Shown: positions 6,431-58,602 of the stretch, piece after piece
How positions within the stretch are numbered: position 1 is the stretch's first letter
How the letters are laid out: every line of letters begins with the position of its first letter
Source of the DNA: Eledone cirrhosa
Lineage: Eukaryota
DNA: 64,000 bases
Direction of reading: 5' to 3'
Assembly: GCA_964016885.1 (NCBI GenBank)
Contig: OZ024748.1
Coordinates: forward strand, 45,632,001-45,696,000
The notes under the pieces: model-generated
What the model was told of the DNA's origin: nothing
Database searches by the model: none
Seen by the model: the letters and a program-made list of their open reading frames with translations, nothing else
Position numbers and translations under genes: made by a program

Positions 6431-6625
6431 TAACGGAGGAGTTGTGGTAAGGAGCCAGATGGACCATAACGCACCAGAGTACTCAATACTTAGGGTAGTA
6501 GAGTGGGTAATAGGACAAAGTATGACCCCGACGGCAGAGCTCAAGCCGTTTCGACGGCTATTTCTGGTCCAGAAATACCCGTCAAAACGGCTTGAGCTCT
6601 GCCGTCGGGGTCATACTTTCTCCTA
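6431..6625. mobile_element. Foldback family A copy (others at 15691-16404, 27175-27347, 29137-29343, 33287-33483, 57826-58191; fragment 11836-11895)
   Basis: Shared gaccccgacggcagagctcaagccgtttcgacggctatttctgg, inverted within each copy; all copies lie between (TA)n. Confidence 0.85.
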
Positions 6626-6714
6626 TATATATATATATATATATTGTAATCATTTCTACATTATTTTGATCAGATTATTCATTTTTCAGACATCACGATG
6701 GTCAACTCATGCAA

Positions 6715-7470
6715 TCTCTTTCTCTACCACCTTCTCTCTGTCTTCCTCTCTCTTTCTCTTCCCTCGTTTTCCCCTCACTTCCTCTCTTTCTCTCCACTTA
6801 CCTTCTCCCCCTCATTTCCTCTCTTTCTCTACCCCCTTCTCTCTTTCTCTTCCCTCCTTCTTTTCCCCTCACTTCCCCTCTTTCTCTCCACTTACCTTCT
6901 CCCCTCATTTCCTCTCTTTCTCTCCACTTACCTTCTCCCCCTCTCATTTCCTCGCTTTCTCTCCACTTACCTTCTCCCCCCTAATTTCCTCTCTTTCTCT
7001 CCACTTACCTTCTCCTCTCCCTCATTTCCTCTCTTTCTCTACCTCCTTCTCTCTGTCTGTCTTCCTCTCTCTTTCTCATCCCTCCTTATCTACCCACTTG
7101 CTCTCCTTCTCCCCACCTATCTTCCTTTCTTTTACTACCTCCTTCTCTCCCCTCACTTCCTCTCTTTTTAATTACTCTCCTTCTCTCCGTCTCTCTTCCT
7201 CTCTCCTCCTCTATCCTCCTTCTCTCCCCTCATTTCATTTCTTTCTCTATTCTCCTTCTCTCCACCATTTCCTATCTCCTTCTCTCCTGTCTACCCCATC
7301 ACTGTCCCTTTACTCTCTCTCTCTCTCTCTGCCTACCTTTCTACCTCTCTTTACTTCTCTCTCTCTTTCTAAGTCTTCTCTTCTCTTTAGTAACACCCTC
7401 TCTCTACCTACGTATCTCCTTCTCACCTTTCATCCTCTCTTTCTTTGTTTCTCTTTCTCTCTACTTCTCT
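6715..7470. repeat. CT-rich low-complexity tract with a ~36-38 bp degenerate unit
   Basis: Repeated ctctttctctccacttaccttctcccc. Confidence 0.8.
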
Positions 7471-7630
7471 CAGTTTTTCTACCGTTCGCTTCAATTTTAC
7501 GAAATCTTTGTTCAATTTTTATCTTAAGTAATTATCCAATATTTAAATTAATCTCATTATATATTCGTATTTTTGACATCATCATTATATATCTCACTCA
7601 CTCACACATTAACTCGCTCTCTCTCTAACA

Positions 7631-53877: not shown

Positions 53878-54852
53878 CTTTCTTTATTTGCCACAGGGGC
53901 GTAAAAAGATGGGACATTACAACACGTGACGGCAGGGGTTTTACATAAAAATAACTTTAACATTAATAAATAACAATAAACTATATATAATAAAATAACA
54001 ATTGAAATCCCCAGTAGGGGGGAACGTTCCTGCAGGGTTGTTTTACACCCCGTGGATAGAACAACCCTCAACACCAGGAACACGTTTTGTAGGTGTTTCT
54101 GTCTTCCCTCTGTTTATCTTCTTCAACCTACAGGTTTATATACAGAGAAGGCCCATTCACTCGGGCCATTTATGCCACATTCACCCACCTTTCAGCGAAT
54201 TTACTGGGGTGTAACACCTCTCTCTCCACTCTCATCTTCCTTCTGAAGTGATACTTAAAGAAGGGGATAAGTTGTTGTCCGGAGAGAAAGGTGTTTGCCC
54301 TCAGTCCTTTTAACCTCGTCCACCATATTACCTCTTTCGCCATAGCCACCAGAAGAGGAAAACCGCCTCTCCTTCGTTCTTAAATGAAGGCGGCGGGGTG
54401 ATCCTCACGATGGACTCGGCTGACAACTGGATGCGCCCCACACGTGACAGTAGCTGTTCGACATGATTCCACAGGTCGGTCACCCCTGGGCACTGTACAA
54501 TTGCGTGCAGAACGGTTTCGATGTTCTGCTCGCATCTTGGAGAGGACCTTTTGGCAGGAACTCTGCCAGGGCGTACGTGCCTGTAGATTTTGTCTCGAAC
54601 TGGTAGAGCTCCTCGGTAGCACTGCCAGGCCAGAGACCTCTGAAAGTTATCCATAGGCCCTGGACGGAAAGTCCTCCCGAACAGACTGGTCAGTTCGTCT
54701 TCCTCGATGCCTAGAGTTTCCCCGAGAACGTCGTCGCACTTATCCTCCACTAATCCCCTATATAATGTCGAAGTGGAGTCTCCGCTGATTGCCGTTTCCG
54801 CTTGGTAGAATGGTGTGAGCGCCTGTAGGCACTCGATGTGGCAGGCACCCAT
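53878..54852 (-). mobile_element. Tx1/L1-like LINE 3' fragment (zf-RVT region)
   Basis: AWQCYRGALPVRDK...PRCEQNIETVLHAIVQCP..W; flanked by (GATA)n. Confidence 0.8.
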
Positions 54853-55811
54853 ATAGATAGGTATATATAGAGATAGATAGAGACATAAACAAAAATTAAA
54901 TTCTATCCAAATCTCTATTTAAACCTGCGATTATAAGATGTGTAGCTGACATATAATATGGAATGGGTGAGTGGAAACTATTACTGTAATCCATCTAATA
55001 AATTACATAGGGGAGAGAGAGAGAGAGAGAGAGAGAGAGAGAGAGAGAGAGAGAGAGAGAGAGAGAGAGAAAGAGAGAGAAGAGAGAGAGAGAGAGAGAG
55101 AGGTGGTGAGATATAGAGGGAGAGAGAGAAATGGACGTGGTGAGATATAGAGGGAGAGAAAGAGATGGAGGTGGTGAGATATAGAGGGAAAGAGAGAAAT
55201 AGATGTGGTGAGATATGGAGGGACAGAGAGAGAGAGAGAGAGAGAGAGAGAGAGAGAGAGAGAGAGAGAGAGAGAGAGAGAGAGTTGTGTGTGGTGAAAT
55301 AGAGAGGGAAACTGTGAGAGAGAACAAAATGAGAGAGATAGTGAGGAAGATATACATAATCAGATAGAGAGGGCGTGTGTGAGATAGAGGGACGGGTAGG
55401 AAGTCAGAAAGAGGAAGAGAGAAAGATATATATATGTATATATATATATACGTATATATATATGTGTATGCATTTATGCATGTATGTTTAATGTGTATAT
55501 ATATATATATATATATATTTATATATATATATATATATATACATATATATATATATAAATATATATATATATATATATATATGTATATATATATATATAC
55601 ATATATACATATATACATATATGTATATATAATATGTTTATATATATATTATAAATATATATACATATATATATTAGAAAGTGAGGTTTTTTTTACAAAA
55701 TGAAAAATAACCGAGGTGTCCTACACGAGTGGAAGTATAAAGAAAAAGGGATGAAATCGAAAATGCAACTGAAGTCTTATTTTTTTAAAAAATATATATA
55801 TTTATTTGGTT

Positions 55812-55849
55812 CCTTTACCGGTTTCGCAGTTCTTCTGCTTTTCAAAAGG
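55812..55849 (-). ncRNA. Minimal hammerhead with a U3-A8 compensatory core
   Basis: Minus strand reads cctt-TTGAAAA-gcag aagaa ctgc-GAAA-CCGG-TA-aagg. Confidence 0.7.
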
Positions 55850-58602
55850 TGAGTTGAGATGGAGGGTCTGTGGTTTTTCTCACATCATACATATATATAT
55901 ATATATATATATACATATATATATATATATATATATATATATATATATATATATATATATATATATATATATATATATATATATATATATATATATAAAT
56001 ATATATGATTTTTCCCTGGATTTCTCTAAATTCTGTTGGATAAATCTATATCCTGATTCCTTTTGAATTGAGTCTGAATTATTTTTCCCATATCTTATGT
56101 TAACTATTTTCCCATTTTGACGATATAGTCGCATATATGTTATGGAATACTGTTAGCTTCTCGCTACAACAATTTCCATACTTTTCATTTATATATATAT
56201 AAATATATATATATATATATATATATATATATATATATATATATATATATATATATATATATATATATATATATATTTATATATATATATATACACACGC
56301 ACACACACACACACACACACACACACACACACACACACATATATATATATATATATATATATATATATATATATATATATATATATATATATATATAATA
56401 TGTTTATATATATATATATATATATATATAGATATAGATATATATACATATATACATATAAACATATATATATATATAAATATATATACATATATACATA
56501 TATATATGTATATATATATATATATGTATATATGTATATATATATCTATATATATATATATATATGTATATATATATATATATATATATGTAGATAAATC
56601 TACCAAGAGTTTACGGTAGTGTCCAATCCGTATATATATATATATATATATATATATATATATATATATATATACATATATATATATAGATATAGATATA
56701 TATATACATATATACATATATATACATATATACATATATATATATATATATATATATATATATATATATATATGTGTGTGTGTGTGTGTGTATGGTAAAC
56801 ATTAGAGGCAGCTAAGCTATATGACATGTGACGTTATTCCATTCAACGTTAACACGTGACGTTATTCCATTTCAACATGTCCTCTCTCTGAAAGGTAAAG
56901 ATATGTAACAGATCTTGTTGCCGTTCAATAATTATTGGTATCGATTTCTTTATCAGATGTAATCAAAATATGTGTTACAACCATTGTTTAATCTACTAGT
57001 GTTTCCACTATGTAAATATGGATCTCTCTGTCATGTGTAGACATAATTATATATATATATATATATATATATATATATATATATATATATATATGTGTGT
57101 GTGTATATAGTGTATATACATATATATGTATATATATATATATATATATATATATATATATATATATATATATATATATATATATAAATACATATATATG
57201 TATATACACACACACATATATATATATATATATATGTGTGTGTGTGTGTGTATATATACATATATATGTATATATAAATATATTTATATATATATATATA
57301 TATATATATATATATATATATATATATATATGTATATATATATATATATATATATATAAATACATATATATGTATATACACACACACACACACACATATA
57401 TATATATATATATATATATATATATATATATAAATACATATATATGTATATACACACACACACATATATATATATATATATATATATATATATATGTTTG
57501 TCGTATATACATATATATGTATTTATATATATATATATATATATATATTTGTTTATATGTATATATATATGTGTATATATATATACATGTGTGTGTATAT
57601 ATATATATGTATATATATATATACATTAATATATATGTCTCCATGTGTATATATCTGTTTATATTTGTGTCTACTTATACACGCACACGCACACATAAAC
57701 AAACACACACACATAAACATACACACACACACTTATATATATATATAATATGTATAAATATGTATGTATGTGTATATATGTGTGTACTAAATATATATAT
57801 ATATATACATATATATATATATATATAACGAAGGAAGTGTGGTAAGGAACCAGATGGACCATAATGCACCAGAGTACTCCAACTTAGGGTAGTAGAGTGG
57901 GTAATAGTAAAAAGTTTAATCCCGACGGCAGAGCTCAAGCCATTTCGACGGCTATTTCTGCACTAAATAAACATTTTTAGCGTGGTAATAAATAGCCGAA
58001 CTTTTGATGGGGTATTTCTTCGTGGTAGATGGCAGGTGGGGTGGCTGAATTTGCCTGTAGAACAATCTTCACATATAAGGAATTACCCCTTGAAAAGTTC
58101 GGGTATTTATTACCACGCTAAACATTTTAATTTAGTCCAGAAATAGCTGTCGAAACGGCTTGAGCTCTGCCATCGGGGTTAAATCTTTTCATATCTATCT
58201 ATATATATATATATCTATATATATATATATATATATATATATATATATATATATATATATATACTATAAATTATGTCCTTAGAATCATTTGATAAGATAT
58301 ATACACTATTTCCTCTCCCAATCAACATAATAAACCACACAAAAAACCAGGCTATAAGATTAAAAGGCACCTGTGAAGAAATAATAGAAAAATAAACGAT
58401 AGCCATTTATTCGCGGTCAACAGCCATAGAATATTTACCCATCATTTCAATAGCACGATTAAATATATCGTTAACAATACACAATTAGGTATAAAATTAA
58501 AGTTAGAAGAAAACATGCATATACACATACCAGGATTACGTTTCTACCCTTATATGCTATATATATATATATATATATATATATATATATATATATATAT
58601 AT

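Follow-up and report, generated by a model that had tools for sequence, protein, structure and literature searches.

The 64,000-nucleotide (nt) window of the Eledone cirrhosa genome analysed here (GenBank assembly GCA_964016885.1, contig OZ024748.1, positions 45,632,001 to 45,696,000; genome size 3.0 Gb) contains, after masking of simple repeats, about 20 local inverted repeats, nearly all of which are bordered by (TA)n. These foldbacks are head-to-head insertions of Penelope-like retrotransposons of the Hydra clade into (TA)n, each probably made from two complementary DNAs (cDNAs) that originated on opposite target strands and were joined at their 3′ ends. The outer ends of the arms lie at two fixed sites of the element, a short end (S) and a long end (L), with the tail as the stretch between them. 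Positions relative to S are numbered from the T of its TA, with negative numbers running inward. Inverted repeats, tails and two start sites have already been published for such elements, and dual priming as proposed here is an extension of that work and not a new class of mechanism.

Outer ends and their pairing

A preliminary description of this DNA had noted six copies of one family (family A), each with one short and one long end at (TA)n, and all six are present. Their short arms, said to stop 10–15 nt past the motif gtcgggg, end 13 nt beyond it, and the long arms, estimated at ~80 nt further, end exactly 80 nt farther out. The two copies of a second family (family B, 16419–17507 and 36304–36520) were said to share both termini; they do so, with a tail of 66 nt. 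The one-sided tail reported for most other foldbacks is observed in 11 of 12 further foldbacks examined in the window, the exception (30279–30618) having two L ends. The two TA-like priming sites that had been postulated correspond to S and L, which are fixed and each contain TA/TAT. The arms of the foldbacks differ by 5–10%. One 16-nt TA run (16405–16420) is common to a family A and a family B insertion, S end facing S end; insertion of new copies into the TA that flanks older ones is also seen at four loci elsewhere (L036, L041, L195 and L212).

A 28-nt core of family A has 15,117 exact copies in the genome, against none for the reversed control. Among 2,776 pairs of family A arms found genome-wide with exact patterns (one subfamily, inner gap 40–200 nt), 2,701 (97.3%) combine S with L, 34 are S+S and 41 are L+L, whereas an independent choice of ends would give 1,388, 691 and 698 pairs, respectively; a few of the S+S and L+L pairs kept in these counts are tandem duplicates or chance matches. 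S+L pairing is also found in 63 of 66 pairs at loci chosen by the inner core only, together with 264 kb around the window, and in 62 of 65 pairs of 11 other families, the end sites of which were defined from window copies that are included in the count. Copies of kilobase length that carry an open reading frame (ORF) follow the same rule in 12 of 13 pairs, as does locus L218. The length of the tail is fixed per family, being 33, 42, 66, 66, 80, 86, 88, 91, 158 and 161 nt in the families supported by several copies. Contigs from an independent public sample contain family B arms whose end, before TA, coincides with this S site (place 36454). At one locus (L132:1172–1390) an S arm and an L arm lie in direct tandem with a TA run between them, each starting at −58.

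Inner ends of the arms

The fold point had been described as varying from copy to copy. Loops in the window copies of family A indeed range from ~0 nt (6567) to 438 nt (15870–16307), the long loop of the latter copy belonging to its S arm, but the variation is not free: inner ends pile up 52–59 nt inside S and some joints recur. Of 110 S+L pairs, 61 have the inner end of the deeper arm at −59 to −57 and 6 have it beyond −62; the set leans short, with 46 of the pairs coming from loci selected by gapped patterns. The 52 pairs with both arms past −52 comprise 38 distinct loops, mirror forms included, with recurrences of 6, 4 and 3; the diversity of loops is taken from this set, the count of 97 joint types in the 110-pair set being inflated by mutation. 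Tabulated over many copies, as had been advised, the outer ends are thus fixed, and there is no single identical joint. Joints are blunt, share 1–6 nt, or contain added bases. Breakpoints at −63 and −65 suggested by local alignment are artefacts of the element's own stem.

The wall at which most family A arms stop is the A of ttAGTcc, 58 nt before S, which resembles the initiator consensus. In Penelope and Chlamys-3 transcription starts in the pseudo-long terminal repeat (pseudo-LTR). A TATA-like box, present 31 nt before the wall in family A and not seen in family E, was not used as evidence. Where a single base lies between two arms both ending at −58, it is G:C at 182 places and A:T at 15. 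A subfamily with native C at −59 was considered as the source of the extra base and rejected, the native base being T in 99 of 100 listed cases. In the unrelated family E the wall lies at ttAGTtt and the extra base is G:C in 45 of the 50 listed of 88 cases. An extra G:C at the wall is what a capped RNA start would be expected to leave, and the wall may well represent the capped 5′ end of the RNA; in full-length L1 insertions an extra G has been described as marking the cap (PMC11702581). Of the earlier proposal that the arms are joined at truncated 5′ ends, the head-to-head join stands, but most inner ends appear to be run-offs at or near a cap-like site instead of random truncations. Cleavage by the hammerhead motif of the element was ruled out as the cause of the inner ends, since the arms continue beyond the GUC site (~−18) and end close to −58.

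The parent element and its surroundings

Families A and B are identified as the 3′ ends (pseudo-LTRs) of Penelope-like elements, which are assigned to the Hydra clade by motif match. Longer genomic copies of family A run more than 2 kb inward into a broken ORF with a reverse transcriptase (RT; YRDD) and a C-terminal nuclease, which is collinear, though broken, in loci L218, L221 and L220. The arms lie head to head because in each of them the sense strand runs outward. Locus L218 contains a whole unit, consisting of an inverted 5′-truncated copy with an L end, a direct pseudo-LTR, the ORF, and a 3′ pseudo-LTR with an S end. Here (L015/L218), the direct pseudo-LTR continues through L into the beginning of the ORF. 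From the layout of L218 it follows that S and L are internal sites of the RNA. The resemblance to Penelope copies noted earlier thus extends to a single ORF with RT and GIY-YIG nuclease, as in endonuclease-positive Penelope-like elements, to 3′ ends that face outward, and to pseudo-LTRs in tandem or inverted order with a one-sided tail (L218 and other families).

The ORF upstream of the arms contains the motifs YRDD, RWR, DKT, CxCx5C, VIY..YIG, CxxC..E and CxH, the last six of which are represented in family A by LRWRTFF, SDKTGN, CNCPDRSMC, VIYQC..YIG, CNLCSEE and CKH. Among 120 listed homologs of ~710–970 amino acids, YRDD is present in 119, RW[K/R] in 111, DKT in 119, the CxCx5C linker in 117, CxxC in 119 and CxH in 110, and the CCHH motif (CxxC inside the core) in none. 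A C-terminal GIY-YIG nuclease without CCHH and with CxxC and CxH flanking the catalytic E and N, the CxCx5C, DKT (in place of DKG) and RW[K/R] motifs, (TA)n targets and a hammerhead motif are the features described for the Hydra clade, and the likeness includes an inverted 5′-truncated copy with a tail at one end (Craig et al. 2021, PMC8557442). For family B the match concerns the nuclease half only. A profile built from 60 of the 120 listed homologs matches the loop of the family B insertion in the window (E 8e-58) and foldback F in each of its arms. Neighbours in the Atlas contain RVT_1 and HTH_animal in part of their membership. Pfam gave no RT or GIY-YIG match for the proteins or fragments of families A and B, and a PDB sequence search with the family proteins yielded 0 matches. 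A different Penelope-like ORF, with Pfam matches to RVT_1 and GIY-YIG and with CxxC inside the nuclease core, is located at L224:993–2408 (−); several Penelope-like clades coexist in the genome. Loci L017, L018, L019 and L022 are near-identical 3.5 kb loci with ~44 kb spacing on one chromosome, a recent tandem segmental duplication.

A hammerhead motif in the pseudo-LTR, as in Penelope elements, is predicted by folding. The family A fold is a three-way junction with type I hammerhead topology and mostly non-canonical cores, which in 46 arms have C3-A8 (32), U3-A8 (12) or U3-G8 (2); U3-A8 is a known core variant (PMC4209133). The core of the window copy at 16297–16392 is degenerate, and its junction was assigned from the fold of a sister copy. 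Canonical cores are observed in families B, D and N. An Rfam scan of the window showed no hammerhead among the 150 of 177 matches listed, and weak microRNA-like matches to hairpins and TA repeats, below gathering scores. In the hammerhead of family A, the putative start at −58 falls within the loop of stem II (window 16297–16392; L218:7250–7380), so that RNA born from this promoter would lack the 5′ half of the ribozyme and read-through RNA would contain all of it.

The features of the window are collected in the table. The second copy of foldback C is interrupted by an assembly gap of 200 N (48571–48770). An abundant 190-nt interspersed repeat that resembles a short interspersed element (SINE) is located at 7720–7925, 21723–21921, 32002–32193, 37349–37749, 39045–39232, 41460–41643 and other places, with one copy within foldback H and another within the ORF of locus L218. 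The window also contains an exon of a neuropeptide precursor (12993–13463, +), with repeated FRFG/FRYG peptides flanked by dibasic sites, which resembles molluscan LFRFamide precursors. A likely signal-peptide exon begins near 8886, and the likely intron of the neuropeptide gene contains a 39-nt tandem array (9755–11237; 38 copies, 98% matches).

Foldback insertions and associated features of the window (positions in the window; end positions relative to S)
Feature	Position	Strand	Details
Foldback J	4587–4866		tail 33 nt
Foldback K	4940–5165		tail 66 nt
Foldback M	5236–5675		tail 161 nt
Foldback C	5780–6253		tail 42 nt; another copy near 48771–49137
Family A insertion	6431–6626		L arm 6431–6567 (−), to −55; S arm 6567–6626 (+), to −57
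Family A remnant, seventh copy	11834–11901	−	S arm only; TA on either side
Family A insertion	15691–16407		L arm 15691–15869 (−), to −97; S arm 15886–16407 (+), to −521
Hammerhead-like three-way junction, family A (predicted)	16297–16392	+	stem I cccc/gggg, long stem II, GAAA, stem III, GUC site
ttAGTc wall, family A	16345–16350	+	position −58 (A at 16347); most family arms stop here; putative transcription start
Family B insertion	16419–17507		S arm 16419–17273 (−); L arm 17274–17507 (+); tail 66 nt
Family B C-terminal ORF remnant	16662–17273	−	CxCx5C linker and GIY-YIG-type nuclease; match to profile of family A homologs (E 8e-58)
Family A insertion	27174–27347		S arm to −33; L arm to −58
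Foldback G	27453–28213		tail 158 nt
Foldback D	28675–29104		tail ~91 nt; hammerhead core CTGATGA..GAAA
Family A insertion	29137–29344		arms to −57 (L) and −52 (S); joint with 13 additional bases
Foldback E	30279–30618		L+L here (exception); family tail 86 nt; wall ttAGTtt with extra G:C
Foldback H	31627–32476		SINE-like repeat within; tail up to 188 nt (single copy)
Foldback I	32853–33195		tail ~83 nt
Family A insertion	33286–33482		S arm to −54; L arm to −58, G before it
Family B insertion	36304–36520		arms to −74 (S) and −73 (L), the latter with a canonical minimal hammerhead core
Foldback N	49246–49617		tail 88 nt; hammerhead core at 49521
Foldback F	49634–51939		2.3 kb; tail 134 nt; nuclease remnants in both arms (+50914–51204, −50706–50951)
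Family A insertion, older	57826–58191		arms to −113 (L) and −131 (S), separated by a rearranged piece
Foldback O	58604–59591		contains inserted repeats; tail at least 138 nt

Origin of the foldbacks and relation to known elements

All classes of joint are best explained by two antisense cDNAs, one for each target strand, joined at their 3′ ends. The RT-nuclease, probably as a dimer, would nick both strands of a TA repeat, after which the two nicked ends would prime within the RNA, one at S and one at L, assisted by a TA match of 2–4 nt. Both cDNAs would extend toward the 5′ end of the RNA. On RNA from the pseudo-LTR promoter, where the cap is only 58 and 138 nt from the two sites, they would run off there and might acquire a C opposite the cap, while on read-through or tandem RNA they could extend for kilobases. 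The cDNA ends would then be joined, either bluntly, through microhomology of 1–6 nt or with the addition of a few bases, and each would prime the second strand of the other. For one cDNA to displace the other on a single RNA, the RT would have to lack RNase H, as RTs of Penelope-like elements presumably do. More tentatively, dual priming may be obligatory and represent the normal route of integration, in which the subunits of one RT dimer would each engage the same RNA at one of the two fixed internal sites, prime there from opposite strands of a cut TA repeat and join the cDNA ends, flooding the genome with tiny S+L palindromes.

The synthesis of two cDNAs from opposite strands, as originally proposed, is supported by the S+L pairing and by the symmetry in depth between S and L arms. 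This symmetry is relevant to an unlikely alternative, in which a single L-primed cDNA folds back, copies itself, stops at S and joins the other target end, with later inversion or deletion at the centre scrambling the loops. Palindrome centres are unstable, and joints at −58/−54 and −58/−55 would suit a 3–4 nt hairpin loop closed by a cap-derived C. Moreover, self-priming has been proposed for Penelope palindromes (PMC3846280). Such folding would, however, always place the loop on the L arm, whereas −58 followed by C is reached by 42 S arms and 43 L arms, and the deeper arm among the 52 pairs is S in 21, L in 23 and neither in 8. Differences in depth can reach hundreds of bases in favour of either arm (S −521/L −97 in the window; S −1150/L −203 in locus L020). 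In addition, the L arm stops inside the tail, at +19 to +39, in 9 of 110 pairs, four of which have an S arm reaching ~−58 opposite; families B, E, G, M and N likewise include L arms that end inside the tail. With the L arm ending there the arms do not overlap, so that no palindrome is present, and an S cDNA cannot yield the tail by self-copying. Self-copying could be rescued by inversion and deletion, which would have to be frequent in young copies.

It is rather improbable that a few short S+L masters, acting as preformed non-autonomous palindromes, were transcribed and recopied whole, their pairing and joints being inherited. Recurrent joints, the one joint type common to 182 copies, and the smaller difference between arms within a copy than between copies (1.9 versus 3.4 differences in 22 nt) would be in line with such masters. 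The arms of a copy mostly share subfamily variants, with locus L060 seemingly discordant; this fits one RNA or one source and is proof of neither, since timing and gene conversion confound the conclusion that one RNA was used. Inheritance from masters is difficult to reconcile with 38 distinct loops in 52 copies, including mirror forms, with the occurrence of the −58/−52 joint in at least three subfamily variants, with the return of the TTAGT wall and the extra G:C in the unrelated family E, and with the S+L rule in the kilobase copies that carry an ORF.

One end of each kind would likewise result from single priming, either with the tail trimmed or left during resolution by the nuclease, as has been suggested (PMC8557442), or with antisense RNA as the template, on which self-priming has been suggested (PMC3846280). 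This is very unlikely, as the extra G is located at the sense 5′ end on either arm, which suggests sense RNA as the template for both. Furthermore, tails of 33–161 nt are fixed per family, and the lizard protein begins reverse transcription at both tail borders in vitro (PMC11167929). An assembly artefact, or miniature inverted-repeat transposable elements (MITEs) of a TA-targeting DNA transposon, can practically be dismissed: foldbacks and (TA)n are hard to assemble and inverted arms look like terminal inverted repeats, but the arms diverge from each other and continue into RT and GIY-YIG ORFs, no transposase is seen, and the public contigs reproduce the S site of family B. MITEs would also be expected to show symmetric terminal inverted repeats, a uniform interior and a transposase partner, which is at odds with the scarcity of S+S and L+L pairs, the 38 loops and the RT partner. 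Non-LTR retrozymes, which are defined by tandem direct repeats each with a whole hammerhead (10.64898/2026.07.22.740005), were also rejected, as the pairs are inverted and, in short arms, the family A hammerhead is without its 5′ half.

Several observations weigh against the two-cDNA origin. The evidence consists of end products in one assembly, from which the two-cDNA step, the start site and the cap are deduced. No RNA run was found to contain the element. Contigs of one public sample that match 36080–36900 form family-wide pile-ups without a piece spanning the locus, and no empty target site was observed. With exact patterns and gaps of 40–200 nt, the genome-wide counts describe short young copies, and the unselected loci contain 36 unpaired arms, mostly L, alongside the 66 pairs, so that two arms are not universal, although some of these arms have a partner too short for scoring. 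The commonest joint, −58/−52, carries no extra base, which is unexplained, and the base beside −58 arms is C in 21 cases, G in 17 and A in 1, most of which can be explained by the partner arm. A repair polymerase that adds untemplated bases with a G:C bias could leave a mark like that of a cap. Family B has a broader cluster of ends, from −60 to −100, without a clear wall. Microhomology at the joints is just mildly above a random model, with breakpoints blurred by later mutations. Finally, the Poseidon element of a lizard is described as having no homology between the start site and the cut DNA (PMC11167929), whereas S and L contain TA/TAT.

The closest biochemical parallel is provided by Poseidon of the green anole, which in vitro cuts and extends both target strands from two internal RT start sites located at the borders of the tail, acts on AT-rich targets, uses uncleaved hammerhead RNA as the template, and is predicted to form a dimer (Frangieh et al. 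2024, PMC11167929). These features parallel what is observed or proposed for the elements described here; the use of different sites on the two strands of one target is not tested in the main text of that study, and the inverted repeat and the joint are not explained there. In the Hydra clade the tail is given as 30–40 bp and optional, and few families are reported in aquatic invertebrates (PMC8557442), whereas the tails here are 33–161 nt, fixed per family, lie on exactly one side in 97% of pairs, and one family exceeds 15,000 exact core copies. Penelope elements of Adineta vaga similarly show head-to-head inverted pseudo-LTRs, a one-sided 31-bp tail and palindromes at the joint, which were attributed to a self-priming step with antisense RNA as the template (Arkhipova et al. 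2013, PMC3846280); the symmetric cap-like mark observed here favours two sense-templated cDNAs. Twin priming of L1 also joins the 3′ ends of opposite-end cDNAs by microhomology, with deletion or duplication at the joint and an extra G at full-length 5′ ends, but its first primer acts at the poly(A) end, with a spurious and variable second primer, and the product is a minority outcome (10.1101/2024.08.27.596794, PMC11702581). In contrast, both sites here are internal and fixed, overlap of the arms is the rule, and the putative dual-cDNA product is the main outcome. No count of end pairing, cap mark at an inverted joint, account of the inverted repeat by two cDNAs, or tail of 66–161 nt was found in the literature searched, with older reviews and supplements outside that search.

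The origin of the inverted repeats and the one-sided tail in Penelope-like elements, the closest mobile relatives of telomerase, has been stated to be open (PMC3846280, PMC8557442, PMC11167929). Thousands of natural products with a near-strict S+L rule and a cap-like mark on either arm separate the published models, and offer a route to the start sites of Penelope-like elements from sequence alone. The main value of the pairing rule is that a mechanistic question becomes testable, directly, in an existing in vitro system. Many short TA-repeat palindromes that are easily filed as MITEs or microRNA-like hairpins are products of retrotransposons. If dual priming is obligatory, second-strand synthesis would be supplied without a separate step, and the location of both sites just downstream of the cap would yield mostly tiny S+L palindromes.

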